Assembly: GCA_013151235.1 (NCBI GenBank)
Contig: JAADIO010000011.1
Coordinates: 1-63,417 of the forward strand
DNA length: 63,417 nucleotides
Origin: Deltaproteobacteria bacterium
GTDB taxonomy: Bacteria > CG2-30-53-67
Direction: 5' to 3'
The notes beneath the pieces are model-generated. The model worked only from the letters and a program-made list of their open reading frames with translations. It did no database searches and had not been told where the DNA came from. Of the stretch, positions 122-5,442 are shown piece by piece; within the stretch, counting starts at the first letter, position 1; each line of letters opens with the position of its first letter. Position numbers and translations under genes: made by a program.

Positions 122-1945
122 TCAGCCCTGCTCCTCCTTTTTCAATGCACCGAGCGCCCGCAGGGCCGCGGTAATCTCTGCGATGGCCTCCTCCTGTTTC
201 AGAAGCTCTTCAATCTCCCCTGCAACCCGGTCCCGGCCCTCTTTCCGACGTTCACGCCCATGGAGGATCGCATTCCGGGTCCCTTCAATCGTCCGCTTCA
301 GGTGCTCGTCTAATTGGGAAACAAACCGACGGAAGGTCCGGTCGATATTCTGCAGGGTCGCCCAGCGGAGGTTCTCCACATTGTGCATCAGAAGGTCCTC
401 CACCTCGGCAAGGATCCGTTTTCGGACCTGTTTGGTAAGGACTGGACGGGGAAGTACCCAGTCGAGCATCCCCGTCGGGATGGAACTTAAACGGTTGCTC
501 CAACGATGGGTTACCCAGTAAGGTTTTCGAACACGGTCGGGGGTCCCCTTCTCTTTCAGCGGGGTATAGGCAAGATCAAAAAGCTCGCAGGCCGTACGGT
601 GGACCGTATCGAGGAGTTCATTCGCCCGGCCCTGGTGCAGGTTGACAAGATCACCGATCCGCTTCTCCATGTCCCGAGACAACTCGCCGAGATGTTTTTC
701 AAAGAACAGCGGAATATTTTTCTCGATCGCCTTCTTCGCCCGTTCCTCCAGACCGGCACGGCTCGGAACATCCGACAGCTCTCTGCTGACCAGAGTATTA
801 AAATAGCTCCGGGCCTCCTCCCGGAGGTCCCCCGACTGTTCCTCCAGAAATTCGACCACCCGTTTCCGGTCCCCGGCCAGCAGGTCCCCCGCCGTCCGGC
901 GCATCCCCTCGGCCTCTTCCACCTGTCGGTTGAAAAGGGCAAGTTTCTCCTCCAGTACCTCGAGGGGGGTCTCAAGGGACCGCCGCCGCAAACGGACGCG
1001 CCCCCCCAGGTCGTCCAGCAAGTCCCCCGCCTTTGCAGCAATCGCCTGCCGAAGGATTGCACCCTTTTCCGTTTTCAGGAATCCGGTGAGACAGGTTTCG
1101 ACCGCTTCCATTCCACTCTCCCTCCATCCCTGTTCGTCGTCGGCGGTCCGGGCCGCAAGACCGTCGCGTCCCGAAACGGGAAAGATCTCGGGAACCTCTT
1201 GTATGGAAAGTTGTTTCCGGATCACATCTTTCAGAAAGTTCGCACACCGCTTCCGCTCGTCCGAAGAGAGATAATCGATCTTGTTGAGGATAAAGAAGAG
1301 ATGTTTCACATGCCCCTGAACGGCTCGGAGAAATTCCACCTCCACCTCCGTAATCGGCGGGTCGGCCGAAACAATAAAAAAGGCGGCATCACACTGGGAA
1401 AGAAAGTTGATCGTCGACTCGGTATTGTGACGAAAGGTGGAACCGATCCCGGGGGTATCAATGAGGACGACCCCATGCGAAAGGAGACCCGAGGGATGCT
1501 CCACATCCACCTGAGTGACGCCAAGACGATTCTCGGGGTTCCGCTCCTCCGTAACATGGCGTTCCAAAAGTTCAACCAGGGCATCATGGGGACAGCCGAC
1601 GCACTCTTCCCGCTCCCCGTCCTCAAAGGAGACCCAAACCGACCTTTTCGGACCGTACCGGAGAAAGGTCGGGATCGCGGTCAAGGGAACGACGGCCGTC
1701 GGCAGAAGAGGCTCCCCCAGGAGGGCATTCAGGAAAGTGCTTTTCCCCCGTTTGAACTGCCCCAGCACAGCCAGATGGAACCGGTCTCCTTCGAGCCGTT
1801 CCCTGAGTTGAGCCAGGCGTTCTTCGTCAGGCAGAAAATCATCCCCCAGTTTTTCTATGAGTTCGGCGGATCGTTCAAAAAGGGTAATAAGGTCAGGGGC
1901 TGCAACAGGGGTGACGGACGGGGTTCCTTCATTGAAGGAATCCAT
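122..1945 (-). CDS. Bacterial dynamin-like protein (dynamin-family GTPase)
   Basis: G1 LGQFKRGKST, G2 PTAVVPLT, G3 LIDTPG, G4 LNKID, then a long helical/coiled-coil stalk; 607 aa; RBS GGAGG before ATG. Confidence 0.9.
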   Translation of the reverse strand: MDSFNEGTPSVTPVAAPDLITLFERSAELIEKLGDDFLPDEERLAQLRERLEGDRFHLAVLGQFKRGKSTFLNALLGEPLLPTAVVPLTAIPTFLRYGPKRSVWVSFEDGEREECVGCPHDALVELLERHVTEERNPENRLGVTQVDVEHPSGLLSHGVVLIDTPGIGSTFRHNTESTINFLSQCDAAFFIVSADPPITEVEVEFLRAVQGHVKHLFFILNKIDYLSSDERKRCANFLKDVIRKQLSIQEVPEIFPVSGRDGLAARTADDEQGWRESGMEAVETCLTGFLKTEKGAILRQAIAAKAGDLLDDLGGRVRLRRRSLETPLEVLEEKLALFNRQVEEAEGMRRTAGDLLAGDRKRVVEFLEEQSGDLREEARSYFNTLVSRELSDVPSRAGLEERAKKAIEKNIPLFFEKHLGELSRDMEKRIGDLVNLHQGRANELLDTVHRTACELFDLAYTPLKEKGTPDRVRKPYWVTHRWSNRLSSIPTGMLDWVLPRPVLTKQVRKRILAEVEDLLMHNVENLRWATLQNIDRTFRRFVSQLDEHLKRTIEGTRNAILHGRERRKEGRDRVAGEIEELLKQEEAIAEITAALRALGALKKEEQG

Positions 1946-2035
1946 AAAAGAACCTCCTCTCCCAGGGGGATTGCGGGAAGGAGGCAGTAAAGACCGTTGC
2001 CTTTCTGCAAACTCCCACCCTGATTCAAAACTTCC

Positions 2036-2092
2036 GAGCAGGAGTCATCAGTCGGGAAAATCCGACATTTTCCGGGCGGACTCCATCGCCTT
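2036..2092 (-). ncRNA. Fluoride riboswitch (crcB motif) aptamer
   Basis: Minus strand reads GGCGATGGAGTCCGCC-CGGAAAAT-GTCGGATTTTCCCGAC-TGATGACTCCTGC: P1 GGCG/CGCC, conserved GAUG, P2 GTCGG/CCGAC, CUGAUG and pseudoknot GGAGT/ACTCC, matching the crcB consensus. Confidence 0.9.
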
Positions 2093-2099
2093 CTTGAAA

Positions 2100-2128
2100 T
2101 TTATATCGTTCAGGCAGGAATCTGTCAA
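2100..2128 (-). promoter_or_regulatory. Sigma70 promoter driving the riboswitch-dynamin transcript
   Basis: TTGACA (2128-2123), 17-nt spacer, TATAAA (2105-2100); the aptamer's GGCG begins 9 nt downstream of the -10 box. Confidence 0.8.
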
Positions 2129-2195
2129 GAATTATTCCGGATGGAATCCCGGGTTAACCCGGGAAGGTCCCGATTTGAACACCGGCGGACCGGCA

Positions 2196-2618
2196 TCAAG
2201 AAGCCTTTGCCTGCAAGAGGGGGGGTGAGCAAGGCAGGACCCGCCCGCCAAGCAGATGATCCACTCGCCGCACCAGCAGGCGGATATCATAGGGCTTGTA
2301 AAGGATATCAAGGCAACCGTACTTCATAAGCCGCCTTGACGTCACCGGTTCATGGTCGGCCGTAACAAAGATGCTTGGAATCGAGAATCCATCTTTCTGA
2401 AGGCGCCGGATCAGATCGTCACCGTCAAGTTTCGGCATATGAATCTCCGAGATCAGAAGATCAAAGGGCAACCCTTCCACTTCCGCCTCGGTAATCATTG
2501 ACAGGGCTTCCAAACCATCTTGCGCTTCCTGAACCTCGTAGCCCTTCATCCGCAGGGCAAAGGCGATGGTATAACGCACGGCAGGTGCATGATCGGCAAC
2601 CACTATTTTTCGACTCAT
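2196..2618 (-). CDS. Single-domain CheY-like receiver (atypical; phospho-acceptor Asp replaced by Glu)
   Basis: Receiver motifs KIVVADH, DLLISEIHMPKLDG, IFVTA, LYKPY. Confidence 0.8.
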   Translation of the reverse strand: MSRKIVVADHAPAVRYTIAFALRMKGYEVQEAQDGLEALSMITEAEVEGLPFDLLISEIHMPKLDGDDLIRRLQKDGFSIPSIFVTADHEPVTSRRLMKYGCLDILYKPYDIRLLVRRVDHLLGGRVLPCSPPLLQAKAS

Positions 2619-2671
2619 TTTCCCCTCCCTCCTTCGAACAGACAGAAAGATCTCACGGTTTTTCAGGATTC

Positions 2672-2887
2672 GTAACTGCTCAGGTTGCTTCTATTTTCCC
2701 GCAGGACAAAGCGTGAGGAGCGCGGACACCTTCGGCGTATTTTTCATACGTTGAGGATTTGAGCACCGCAACACCCCAAGATCCCTTATTCATCAGGGCC
2801 GCTGAAAGCGACAAAGATAAACTAAGGCGGGGCACGCCGAAGGCGTAACCAGTCATACGGAAAAAGAGTGGTGACCTGAGTAGTTAC
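2672..2887. mobile_element. 216-bp MITE-like element with 8-bp target-site duplication
   Basis: Terminal IRs GTAACTGCTCAGGT / ACCTGAGTAGTTAC (13/14, extending imperfectly to about 36 bp); flanked on both sides by CAGGATTC (2664-2671 and 2888-2895); internal IR CCTTCGGCGT/ACGCCGAAGG. Confidence 0.85.
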
Positions 2888-3102
2888 CAGGATTCCTCCC
2901 AGGTCCCGTTACAGACCTGGCCATGAATGAATCTTTTTTCGGGGAAACCGATATCCCGATGGAGAAACACAACCTTGCCGCAGATCCGGCAATGATAACT
3001 CTCTCCATCGTAGAGGAACCCCCCTTCGTTGTTTTCCCGGTTGAAGTAAACCGGACGGTTCCACTGCATCTTCCCGGCACCGCATTTCGGGCAATTCATC
3101 AT
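2884..3102 (-). CDS. Small zinc-ribbon protein (CxxC...CxxC), function unknown
   Basis: MMNCPKCG...YHCRICGK; strong RBS GGAGG before ATG; downstream of a sigma54 promoter. Confidence 0.7.
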   Translation of the reverse strand: MMNCPKCGAGKMQWNRPVYFNRENNEGGFLYDGESYHCRICGKVVFLHRDIGFPEKRFIHGQVCNGTWEESW

Positions 3103-3170
3103 GGCACCTCCTTCCCCTCGCCTGCATTTTTTAAGATTGAAATGAGGAAGATCTTACGAAACAAAAATAT

Positions 3171-3186
3171 TGCAAATTGAATGCCA
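3171..3186 (-). promoter_or_regulatory. Sigma54 (-24/-12) promoter
   Basis: Minus strand TGGCATTCAATTTGCA has the exact GG-N10-GC spacing of TGGCACG-N4-TTGC. Confidence 0.75.
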
Positions 3187-3270
3187 AAGATACGACCGGA
3201 GTCACACGGAAAAACCAATGTAAGTTCAACCGGTTAGAAAACCGTAGAAAAGGAAGGAGCTGCAAAAAAA

Positions 3271-3313
3271 GACAAAACTGTCACAGTCAAGACCTTTCTG
3301 CGACAATCCTGTC
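3271..3313. promoter_or_regulatory. Pair of palindromic upstream activator sites (putative bEBP enhancer)
   Basis: GACA-AAAC-TGTC (3271-3282) and GACA-ATCC-TGTC (3302-3313), 31 bp apart, about 85-130 bp upstream of the -24 box. Confidence 0.55.
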
Positions 3314-3331
3314 ATCGAGAAATTTCGCGGA

Positions 3332-3988
3332 TTACAGCGATTTGATCCGCTCCAGGTCGCTGTTCCTGCCGAGAACAACCATCATCTCACTGTCTTTGAG
3401 TACCTTTTCCGGATCGATAATCAACTCTACTTTGTTCTCGATGACATCCTTGATGGCAATAATCTGCAGACCGAATTTCCGCCGGAAGTCGAGGTCCCGG
3501 ATCTTCTGTCCGACAATCTTCTTCGAGGGTGCCACCTCCTGTATACTGTACCCCTCGACGAAGGGGATATAATCGATAATATTCTTCGTGCTGATCCTTC
3601 GGGCAAGCCGGATTGCGACATCCTTCTCCGGGAAGACCACCTCCGATGCGCCGAGGGTGGAAAGGATCTTCCCATGGTCCTCTTCGTTGGCCTTGGCGAT
3701 GATCTGCCGGACCCCTAACTCCTTGAGGAATAGGGTGGCCAGAATACTCGATTCCAGGGATTCACCCATGGCAATAATGACAATGTCGTCCGGGTCCAGT
3801 CCAAGGGATTTCAGGAACTCCTTGTTGGTAACGTCGGCCACCATCGCCCTGGAGGCATGGTCTTTCGCTCTCTGTACGGCATCCCGGTCCCGGTCGAGGG
3901 CCACCACATCGGCACCCGCTTCGTAAAGGGTCCTGGCCACATGACTTCCGAACATTCCCAATCCGATAACGACATATTGCTGTTTCAT
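3332..3988 (-). CDS. ktrA: Ktr/Trk potassium uptake system, RCK regulatory subunit
   Basis: VIGLGMFG Rossmann motif, IIAKA, VVFPEKD, TrkA-C domain; follows the KtrB membrane subunit. Confidence 0.9.
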   Translation of the reverse strand: MKQQYVVIGLGMFGSHVARTLYEAGADVVALDRDRDAVQRAKDHASRAMVADVTNKEFLKSLGLDPDDIVIIAMGESLESSILATLFLKELGVRQIIAKANEEDHGKILSTLGASEVVFPEKDVAIRLARRISTKNIIDYIPFVEGYSIQEVAPSKKIVGQKIRDLDFRRKFGLQIIAIKDVIENKVELIIDPEKVLKDSEMMVVLGRNSDLERIKSL

Positions 3989-4012
3989 CTCCGCACCTTT
4001 AAAAAGTCAGGG

Positions 4013-4058
4013 TTGATAAACTCGTTAAAAAGCAGACGGACTTTATGACAAAGCCGTC
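4013..4058. repeat. Degenerate short IR element related to the element at 28352
   Basis: TTGATAAACTCGTTAAAAAG...GACTTTATGACAAAGCCGTC resembles GATGGTGTCGTAAAAAGTC...GACTTTTTACGACTTCATC. Confidence 0.4.
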
Positions 4059-4062
4059 CCGG

Positions 4063-5442
4063 TCAGCCTACCATAATGTTTTCTTCCGGGTAAGAAAAGA
4101 GTTCTTCCTTCCGTTCCCCGGAAATCGCCAAGGCAACGGTGATCGGGCCCACTCTTCCGACAAACATCAGGATCATCAGGATGATCTTGCCTGCCGCCGA
4201 AAGGGTCGGCGTGACTCCGGTGGACAGTCCTACCGTACCAAAAGCGGAAACGGTCTCAAAGAGATACTCTAAAAAAAGCCCGCGGCTCGCCGGATGAGGG
4301 ATATCCCCCAACTCCGTAATCATCAGGGCCATCGTCCCGAGCAGGATCAACAGCAGGGAAAGAAGAATAATGGAGATGGCTCTCGCCACCGTCTCGGAAG
4401 GGACGGTCCTTCGAAAGAGGACCGTATCTTCCCGGGCCTTCCATTTTGAATGGGCCATGGCCAGAAGTACGGCAAAGGAGGTCGTCTTGATCCCGCCGCC
4501 GGTTGAACCGGGAGAGGCCCCGATAAACATGAGAATGATCGTGAAGAGGAGGGTCCCGTTTGTCAGCAGATGGTAATCGACGGTATTGAATCCGGCCGTC
4601 CGGGGTGTAATCGACTGGAAGAGGGCCATGAGCCCCTTTTCGCCGAAAGAGGCACCGGCCAGAGCATTCTTCCATTCCAGCACCAGAAACCCCGCGGCAC
4701 CGGCAATGATGAGAAGACCCGTCATGACGAGGACCGTTCGGGTATGGGTGGAGATGGAGATCCTCTTCTTCTGCAGGAATTTCGCCGCCGTAAATTTCTG
4801 AAGCTCCCGCAGGACCAGGAAACCGAGACCCCCGGCAATGATCAGGACAAGGATGACGCCGTTCACCCAGGGATCGCCCCTGTAATCGACAAGGCTTCGG
4901 GAGAAGAGGGAAAATCCGGCATTGCAAAAGGCCGATACGGAATGGAAAAGGGCTTGGAAAAAGGCCTCCTTTAACGGGAAGAGGGTCCGCCACCGAAAAA
5001 AGAGGAGCGCCCATCCCACCCCTTCAAAAAGGAGGGTCATGATAAAGACGTTCTTCACCAGGGTGGAGACGGAAAGATCGGTCTTGTGGGAGAGGGTTCC
5101 CTGTACGAGTTCCCGACCTTTGAAGGTCAGCCGTCTGCCCAGGACCAAGATCACCACCGTTGAGTAGGTCATGATTCCCAAGCCCCCCATCTGGATCAGC
5201 AGAAGCAGAATCCCCTGACCGGTGGTGGAAAAACGACTCCCGGTATCGACCACGGTCAAACCCGTCACACAGACGGCGGAGGTCGCCGTAAAGAGGGCGT
5301 CGAGGAAGGAGACGGGACCGCCCGCCAGGGAAAAACGGGCGTGGAGGAACACGGCCCCGACCAGAATCGCCAGGGCAAAGCTGCCGATGAGGAGCGTATT
5401 GGGGTGCAAACGTTTGATCCGTCCGAGCATATGATTCGCCAT
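4063..5442 (-). CDS. ktrB: Ktr/TrkH potassium uptake membrane subunit
   Basis: Four pore-loop motifs: SAVCVTGL, SAFCNAGF, PRTAGF, SAFGTVGL; GSTGGGIK; MFVGRVGP. Confidence 0.92.
   Translation of the reverse strand: MANHMLGRIKRLHPNTLLIGSFALAILVGAVFLHARFSLAGGPVSFLDALFTATSAVCVTGLTVVDTGSRFSTTGQGILLLLIQMGGLGIMTYSTVVILVLGRRLTFKGRELVQGTLSHKTDLSVSTLVKNVFIMTLLFEGVGWALLFFRWRTLFPLKEAFFQALFHSVSAFCNAGFSLFSRSLVDYRGDPWVNGVILVLIIAGGLGFLVLRELQKFTAAKFLQKKRISISTHTRTVLVMTGLLIIAGAAGFLVLEWKNALAGASFGEKGLMALFQSITPRTAGFNTVDYHLLTNGTLLFTIILMFIGASPGSTGGGIKTTSFAVLLAMAHSKWKAREDTVLFRRTVPSETVARAISIILLSLLLILLGTMALMITELGDIPHPASRGLFLEYLFETVSAFGTVGLSTGVTPTLSAAGKIILMILMFVGRVGPITVALAISGERKEELFSYPEENIMVG

Follow-up and report, generated by a model that had tools for sequence, protein, structure and literature searches.

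The window analyzed here is the complete 63-kb contig C36 of a deltaproteobacterial genome (G000; assembly of 2.62 Mb in 73 contigs), and close to its left end it carries a gene for a dynamin-like GTPase directly behind a fluoride riboswitch. Taken as a whole, the data are very likely best explained by an ON riboswitch that controls a solo GTPase of the BDLP/IniA type (BDLP, bacterial dynamin-like protein), of a kind that fluoride riboswitches regularly serve and that in some genomes is their only target. We show the aptamer, the family to which the gene belongs, the conserved linkage of the two, and the gene neighborhoods in which they recur. Control of the GTPase by the riboswitch had been proposed in an initial annotation of this DNA, and the proposal is supported by a linkage conserved across unrelated lineages and by neighbors that belong to the fluoride regulon.

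The fluoride aptamer and its gene

The crcB-type aptamer of the initial annotation is recovered by the Rfam search for which that annotation had asked: the fluoride riboswitch model RF01734 matches the leader on the minus strand with 48.1 bits (gathering score 34, E 2.9e-10) over model positions 1-64 of 64. The match was repeated with the same result in a search of the whole genome, and RF01734 is the only Rfam family above its cut-off across the window. The aptamer core starts with GGCGAUGGAGUCCGCC at 2090 and ends in CUGAUGACUCCUGC, and its alignment to the RF01734 consensus, GGCGAUGGAGU...CUGAUGACUCCU, contains helices P1 and P2 together with the invariant loop and tail nucleotides. Helix P1 pairs GGCG (2090-2087) with CGCC (2078-2075), and the pseudoknot strands, which we assign from the published fold of the class, are presumably GGAGU (2084-2080) and ACUCC (2045-2041). 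P1 and P2 covary across 92 related aptamers, with 93.9% of cells paired and double-sided changes in seven of the eight pairs, in an alignment that was fitted to the model. In itself the aptamer is an ordinary representative of its known class.

The aptamer is located in the 5′ leader, on the same strand as the gene and 3′ of the promoter, in the order promoter (2128-2100), aptamer (2099-2032), and ATG (1945). The TTGACA-N17-TATAAA promoter that had been read earlier is confirmed, and CTTGACA-N17-TATA(A/T)A is conserved at an equal distance from the aptamer in two related genomes (G002 and G005). The transcription start is predicted about 7 nucleotides (nt) 3′ of the -10 box, a few nt before helix P1. 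A consensus promoter scan listed no promoter in positions 1-2700, because the rule of the scan demands a T at the last -10 position. With two aptamers in 2.62 Mb, the chance of finding one within 450 nt 5′ of a given gene on the same strand is about 2e-4.

The open reading frame (ORF) behind the aptamer matches Pfam Dynamin_N with 91.4 bits against a cut-off of 27 (residues 58-222), in agreement with the 607-amino acid (aa) dynamin-like GTPase of the initial annotation. It is the sole convincing Dynamin_N gene in G000, where three further matches are short P-loop hits of 21.2-25.6 bits. The absence of a fluoride exporter from the window, also noted in that annotation, holds for both CrcB and CLC genes: CrcB has a single match in the genome, on contig C25, and CLC has two, on C8 and C17; the crcB gene (G000:C25:3620-3958) has no Rfam match within 1.5 kb. 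The second fluoride aptamer of G000 (C19:20635-20699, which is L002 1501-1565, minus strand; 36.1 bits) precedes a membrane subunit of the NADHdh family (NuoH/HyfC-like), an arrangement that fits the known formate-hydrogenlyase class.

Conservation of the pairing and its gene neighborhoods

The survey proposed in the initial annotation, for aptamers upstream of dynamin genes, found the pairing repeatedly. It covered a phylum set of 14 genomes, a larger sample of 401 genomes, and a set of metagenome loci. A homologue is present in five of the 14 genomes of the phylum (G000, G002, G005, G007, and G012), and an orthologue at an E of 1e-80 or better in 11 of the 401 genomes sampled. Directly 5′ of the orthologue, RF01734 scores above its cut-off in seven of these 11 genomes (G000, G002, G005, G135, G363, G212, and G044); the match in G157 is below that cut-off at 24.2 bits, and G012 is not assessable, with a contig that ends inside the gene. 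The G007 genome has a dynamin paralogue of 593 aa, 33% identical to P0001 (the protein encoded in the window), as the third gene behind an aptamer (L108, G007:C146:5000-9600, minus strand: aptamer 4115-4182, Na_H_Exchanger 2865-4070, Usp 2426-2902, dynamin 621-2399), which indicates that a second, divergent dynamin lineage is also under fluoride control.

The metagenome scan used two protein motifs of the family and did not select on RNA. The best 80 of 531 relatives (40-50% identity; 491,859 bases) were searched with R1, a covariance model built from eight aptamers, and matches of at least 25 bits were counted. R1 found 80 such aptamers in the 80 loci, and 56 loci have one no more than 450 nt 5′ of the dynamin gene and on its strand, compared with 2.6 expected at random. 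An Rfam recheck of the 14 lowest-scoring of these 56 proximal aptamers brought 12 to the gathering score, with those of L100 and L049 below it. Among the 24 loci without a proximal aptamer, five (L027, L033, L037, L043, and L046) carry one at the start of a run of genes on one strand, with the dynamin gene as the last of the run, and six have less than 300 nt of upstream sequence. Aptamer-bearing members are found throughout a FastTree phylogeny of 84 proteins. Of the 19 members that lack one, 13 group in a single clade in which the gene lies behind enolase. On this comparative sequence evidence the pairing is conserved across unrelated lineages.

RF01734 was found above its cut-off in 23 of 150 sampled genomes, 19 of them outside the phylum, and in two of these 19 (G044 and G135) the riboswitch is on the dynamin gene, so that the class can hardly be called rare. 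G002, G005, G135, and G044 yielded no RF01734 match other than the dynamin aptamer, and G000 and G363 yielded one more each. CrcB is present and not riboswitch-linked in G000, G002, G005, G363, and G044, and was not found in G135.

The dynamin gene neighbors are classic fluoride-regulon genes. The 59 same-strand ORFs just downstream include enolase (nine), major facilitator superfamily (MFS) transporters (eight), Na_H_Exchanger (five), HEAT_2 (five), Prenyltrans toroid (four), His_Phos_1 (three), and Usp (one) proteins, and the 18 ORFs behind other aptamers in the loci include Na_H_Exchanger (six), enolase (three), H_PPase (one), CRCB (one), and Metallophos (one). The 41 upstream ORFs of loci without a proximal aptamer include enolase (eight), Prenyltrans (five), Na_H_Exchanger (three), MutS_V (three), Usp (two), and CRCB (one). 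At least two aptamers are present in 17 of the 80 loci.

Several further arrangements were observed in these loci. Divergent back-to-back aptamers less than 300 nt apart occur in seven loci (L064, L075, L076, L083, L090, L091, and L098), in which one aptamer serves dynamin and the other a gene for enolase or Na_H_Exchanger that is read in the opposite direction, and L091 and L040 each have three or more aptamers. Locus L073 has tandem aptamers 54 nt apart (902-966 and 1020-1093, plus strand; 50.2 and 38.2 bits, both above the Rfam cut-off) ahead of a 123-aa ORF, and the pair might act cooperatively or integrate two inputs. Genes for proteins of about 290-305 aa repeatedly abut the dynamin gene, with at most 4 nt of overlap or spacing; the encoded proteins are Prenyltrans alpha-alpha toroids in some loci and HEAT-repeat/HAD fusions in others (joined ORFs, for example, L047 2237-3124, L065 5779-6681, L071 3606-4520; L042 3863-4738, L053 5747-6619; upstream ORFs, for example, in L056, L060, L068, L086, and L099). 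DUF6062 proteins also recur in dynamin loci, and the toroid, HEAT/HAD, and DUF6062 proteins may be further, unrecognized members of the fluoride regulon.

The predicted switch and the dynamin-like protein

The leader between the end of the aptamer (2032) and the ATG (1945) is 86 nt long, close to the 90 nt or so first estimated. Its Shine-Dalgarno (SD) sequence, GGAGG (1957-1953), lies inside GGGAGAGGAGG, and the U-rich tract UUCUUUU directly precedes the AUG (coordinates of all features are collected in Table 1). In the unconstrained minimum-free-energy (MFE) fold, the aptamer 3′ strand (2045-2036) pairs with the G-rich strand GGGUGGGAGU, and the C-rich strand CCUCCUUCCC pairs with GGGAGAGGAGG, the SD sequence included. 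A constrained fold in which the aptamer core was barred from outside pairing, as a mimic of the ligand-closed pseudoknot, pairs the G-rich strand with the C-rich strand instead. G002, which is of the same genus, and G005, which is of another genus, share with G000 the promoter boxes, the two switching strands, and the SD sequence with its U-tract; GGG.GGGAG of the switching strand is common to all three genomes, and the G002 leader carries the same hairpin with U7.

These folds lead us to predict that the leader is a three-strand ON switch that unmasks the ribosome-binding site under fluoride, and fluoride may also prevent termination. A sigma-70-type promoter would start a transcript of which the first 60 nt or so would form the canonical fluoride aptamer. 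Without fluoride, the aptamer 3′ strand ACUCCUGCUC would pair with the downstream G-rich strand, and the freed C-rich strand would pair with the SD region to give a hairpin followed by the U-tract, so that translation would be blocked and transcription probably terminated. Fluoride would close the aptamer pseudoknot, the G-rich strand would then capture the C-rich strand, and the ribosome-binding site would be exposed. Known RF01734 riboswitches, which precede crcB, eriC-F, Na+/H+ antiporter, enolase, pyrophosphatase, and formate-hydrogenlyase genes, belong to the same aptamer class, and the present one likewise spans the full model length within a 5′ leader; they also share the ON logic, predicted here, in which the aptamer 3′ strand competes with the expression platform. 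It is the controlled gene that differs, being here a dynamin-like GTPase that in several genomes is the sole target found, with crcB not linked to a riboswitch.

The P0001 protein consists of a G domain (about residues 56-276), long helical neck and trunk bundles, and a tip loop, PYWVTH(K/R)W, at residues 475-482. Across 26 family members the G1-G4 motifs are invariant (G62..G67 K68 S69; T89/T93; D163 T164 P165 G166; N221 K222 D224), and the tip loop is conserved, with P475, W477, and W482 invariant. An AlphaFold2 model, with a mean predicted local distance difference test score (pLDDT) of 78.4, has helices at 19-52, 279-455, and 493-600. Its top Foldseek matches are IniA (6j72, E 1.3e-21) and then BDLP (2j69, E 1.8e-20), with both alignments spanning about 600 columns, and the best sequence match in the PDB is BDLP (2j68, E 1.2e-37), followed by the Campylobacter dynamin-like protein pair, IniA, and mitofusins. 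Model and alignments together indicate that the protein has the BDLP/IniA fold with intact GTPase motifs.

Homologues with 45-50% identity, named "dynamin family protein," occur in Moorella/Neomoorella and in metagenome-assembled genomes labeled Deltaproteobacteria, Planctomycetota, Kiritimatiellae, Caldilineae, and Caldatribacterium, and a search of the ESM Atlas matched just "dynamin family" clusters, which gave no functional lead. Several cultured species of Moorella/Neomoorella carry orthologues with 45-47% identity. By sequence similarity the protein belongs to a distinct, widely distributed dynamin subfamily outside the named NCBIfam subfamilies. Membership in DynA (NF052648; 75.7 bits, cut-off 1600), CrfC (NF007368; 28.6 bits, cut-off 1146), and LeoA/HP0731 (NF041922; 19.6 bits, cut-off 325) was considered and rejected.

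The closest structural comparator, IniA (PDB 6J72/6J73), is only 19% identical to P0001 and superposes with a TM score of 0.49-0.52; both proteins have about 600 aa and combine a G domain with a helical neck and trunk. The mycobacterial IniA is an isoniazid-inducible dynamin-like protein with a role in membrane fission, and by this analogy the two are predicted to be dynamins that are produced under chemical stress. IniA belongs to the iniBAC operon, which includes a second dynamin-like gene and is governed by protein regulators, in contrast to the single, riboswitch-governed gene of the window. Among solved structures, BDLP of Nostoc punctiforme (PDB 2J68/2J69/2W6D) gives the best sequence match (query residues 40-343) and ranks second by fold, and it has the same domain order. 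In BDLP the tip is a hydrophobic paddle, and the topologically equivalent tip of P0001 is instead the aromatic loop PYWVTH(K/R)W without a hydrophobic stretch; BDLP is not known to have an inducer. The DynA protein of Bacillus subtilis is a GTPase of the dynamin family that has been linked to membrane repair and to protection from stress, and unlike P0001 it is a two-module dynamin fusion of about 1190 aa.

Table 1. Features at the left end of contig C36 (numbering of the window)
Feature	Position	Strand	Basis or remark
-35 box TTGACA	2123..2128	-	Direct reading; CTTGACA invariant in G000, G002, G005
-10 box TATAAA	2100..2105	-	Direct reading, 17 nt 3′ of -35 box; conserved in relatives
Fluoride riboswitch aptamer (crcB motif, RF01734)	2032..2099	-	Rfam covariance model
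G-rich switching strand GGGUGGGAGU	2011..2020	-	MFE and constrained folds
C-rich anti-SD strand CCUCCUUCCC, 5′ arm of predicted sequestor/terminator-like hairpin	1975..1984	-	Folds, conservation
3′ arm GGGAGAGGAGG (1963-1953) and UUCUUUU (1952-1946)	1946..1963	-	Reading, MFE folds
Dynamin-like GTPase P0001, 607 aa, solo gene	122..1945	-	ORF and Pfam Dynamin_N
13-bp hairpin 3′ of dynamin stop codon	31..60	.	T-run on + strand, convergent tRNA-Ala side
Terminator-like hairpin	2137..2152	-	Ends the response-regulator gene; separates that gene from the riboswitch promoter
Receiver-domain (response-regulator) gene, upstream neighbor	2196-2618	-	Ends in own terminator-like hairpin

Proposed function, rival readings, and genome setting

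For the function of the GTPase we tentatively favor a role in membrane maintenance, to which we give a little less than even chances. The protein would bind the cytoplasmic membrane through its aromatic tip loop, and GTP-driven assembly would maintain or reseal the membrane during stress by fluoride or hydrogen fluoride (HF), in the manner of other stress-induced bacterial dynamins. This role is favored because the fold is that of the membrane-active BDLP/IniA group, because the genes under common control act on the balance of protons and ions at the membrane, and because the stress-induced dynamins IniA and DynA are precedents. A further reason is that the toxicity of fluoride centers on the entry of HF and the acidification of the cytoplasm, as described in a review (PMC11139923). 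We give similar odds, a little less than even, to a bolder reading, in which the subfamily would be an effector dedicated to fluoride stress, alongside the Fluc/CrcB and CLC-F exporters, in some anaerobes the dynamin would be the only gene under direct fluoride sensing, and the GTPase cycle may itself respond to fluoride. A GDP-metal-fluoride complex could lock the G-domain dimer, in which case fluoride would both induce the protein and drive its assembly on the membrane.

Several considerations weigh against this account of switch and function, both of which are predictions from sequence and folds. The leader as a whole folds with an unremarkable MFE z-score of -0.9, the unconstrained G005 fold does not show the OFF state cleanly, and a hairpin with a T-rich tail precedes the start codon in just 24 of 56 orthologue leaders, so a termination component is not general. 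The tip loop through which the protein would bind membranes is poorly modeled, with a pLDDT below 50 at residues 464-481, and the protein has neither a transmembrane segment nor a strongly hydrophobic paddle, since no 19-residue window exceeds a mean Kyte-Doolittle value of 1.35. As regards conservation, the gene was not found in nine of the 14 genomes of the phylum, no aptamer was found 5′ of the orthologue in G328 and G095, and of the 24 metagenome loci that lack a proximal aptamer, 13 show none anywhere in the available sequence. The R1 model is itself mostly dynamin-derived, with seven of its eight aptamers dynamin-linked, and several of the metagenome loci are near-duplicates.

Complexes of GDP with metal fluorides (AlFx, MgFx) trap GTPases in a form that resembles the transition state, and the cell might overproduce the protein as a decoy or to replace inhibited molecules, as has been supposed for enolase and pyrophosphatase. 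For the most part the partners of the dynamin gene are phosphoryl-transfer enzymes sensitive to fluoride (enolase, His_Phos_1 mutase, HAD-type hydrolase, H+-pyrophosphatase, Metallophos) and the GTPase motifs are intact; moreover, GDP-AlFx trapping of dynamin G-domain dimers is established biochemistry, and GDP-AlFx-bound OPA1 is among the PDB titles in the Foldseek matches. Simple compensation is nevertheless unlikely: it is weakened because G000 lacks a second true Dynamin_N protein that could be backed up, and because the gene is behind a predicted ON switch, according to which the dynamin would be wanted specifically under fluoride and not topped up. One-for-one binding of fluoride by the protein would also be implausible at millimolar fluoride. 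We likewise consider it improbable that the protein, in place of remodeling membranes, is a GTP-driven scaffold or regulator of the co-expressed enolase, phosphoglycerate mutase, Na+/H+ exchanger, and MFS transporter. In many loci an enolase, His_Phos_1, HEAT/HAD, or Prenyltrans-toroid gene does follow the dynamin gene with an overlap or gap of at most 4 nt, the G002 Na_H_Exchanger gene starts 15 nt after the dynamin gene, and the reported regulation of a diguanylate cyclase by E. coli dynamin homologues is a precedent away from membranes. Against such a partnership, the partner varies by locus, no partner family reaches a fifth of the loci, and the dynamin gene stands alone in G000 and G005.

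The monocistronic arrangement also bears on whether the riboswitch really serves downstream transport or glycolytic genes, with the dynamin gene merely lying between. Downstream of the G002 dynamin gene come Na_H_Exchanger and MFS genes, and a same-strand ORF lies within 300 nt downstream in 59 of the 80 metagenome loci; however, nothing but a hairpin and a convergent tRNA-Ala comes after the G000 gene, so that the riboswitch there serves one gene, and tblastn found no homologue of the G002-type Na_H_Exchanger or MFS gene at the G000 contig edge at E 1e-5 or better. With no same-strand ORF of at least 100 aa close downstream in G005, the dynamin gene first after the aptamer in 56 of 80 loci, and aptamer-bearing members spread throughout the family tree, a passenger role is very improbable, and for the window itself the monocistronic arrangement largely refutes it. 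An anti-phage dynamin of the Eleos (LeoA/LeoBC) type that came to lie behind a riboswitch by coincidence has a still slighter probability. PADLOC returned LeoA at 66.9 bits and LeoBC at 63.7 bits, but these matches are partial and reflect general dynamin homology; a Dynamin_N neighbor was found in none of the 59 downstream ORFs, in one of the 41 upstream ORFs, and not beside the gene in the window, and the conserved context is the fluoride regulon, not defense genes. An Eleos defense system was rejected on the partial matches and the lack of a paired LeoA/LeoBC gene.

Control of a dynamin by fluoride, as preferred here, had been put forward in the initial annotation as a candidate undescribed pairing, and that part of the claim stands within limits: no paper in the full-text literature searched joins the fluoride riboswitch or crcB motif with a dynamin, and Baker et al. 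2012 with its supplement, and hence its gene lists, was outside the coverage of that search. A gene table may thus already list the association without comment. Co-mentions of crcB and dynamin, of bacterial dynamin-like proteins and riboswitches, and of fluoride riboswitches and GTPases in the full-text literature were unrelated to a fluoride-dynamin link. Genes tied to the crcB motif by Weinberg et al. 2010 include mutS, K+ and Cl- transport, and formate hydrogenlyase genes (PMC2864571), and the classes given by Stockbridge and Wackett 2024 are exporters, Na+/H+ antiporters, pyrophosphatase, HAD, enolase, and formate hydrogenlyase (PMC11139923). Other sources on the class are Sherlock and Breaker 2020 (PMC7266159), McCown et al. 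2017 (PMC5473149), and PMC9971707. Neither a dynamin nor a GTPase appears in the available part of the fluoride-resistance review of Stockbridge and Wackett, or among the riboswitch-associated classes in the available parts of PMC2864571, PMC7266159, PMC5473149, and PMC9971707. Within the literature searched, the dynamin subfamily is thus apparently an undescribed member of the fluoride regulon.

The roles of bacterial dynamins are poorly defined, and for most of them a small-molecule inducer is not established, so a conserved fluoride switch offers a clean and testable condition under which one dynamin subfamily is needed. The fluoride "super-regulon" has so far been framed as exporters, pH and ion homeostasis, and fluoride-sensitive enzymes, and a dynamin that is the sole target in genomes where crcB is not riboswitch-linked suggests an unrecognized side of fluoride toxicity, which could be membrane damage or the trapping of nucleotide hydrolases. 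If the subfamily is indeed a dedicated effector and fluoride drives its assembly, bacterial dynamins would have in fluoride their first defined physiological trigger, and the protein would represent a new class of fluoride-tolerance protein.

The genes directly 5′ of the riboswitch, which encode TrkH, TrkA, and a stand-alone receiver-domain protein, have the same order in G000 (2196-5442) and G002 (L011 1075-4202). K+ transport genes are among the earliest classes tied to the crcB motif (PMC2864571), and the Trk genes at the G000 and G002 locus stand outside the riboswitch unit. At the other side of the dynamin gene, the left end of C36 shares a 24-nt overlap with the end of contig C9, which terminates with tRNA-Ala(GGC) and a 271-nt tandem duplication of the tRNA 3′ end plus about 70 nt (G000:C9:9224-9639); the duplication at this junction, which adjoins the dynamin gene, looks like an att-like scar or an assembly-collapsed repeat.

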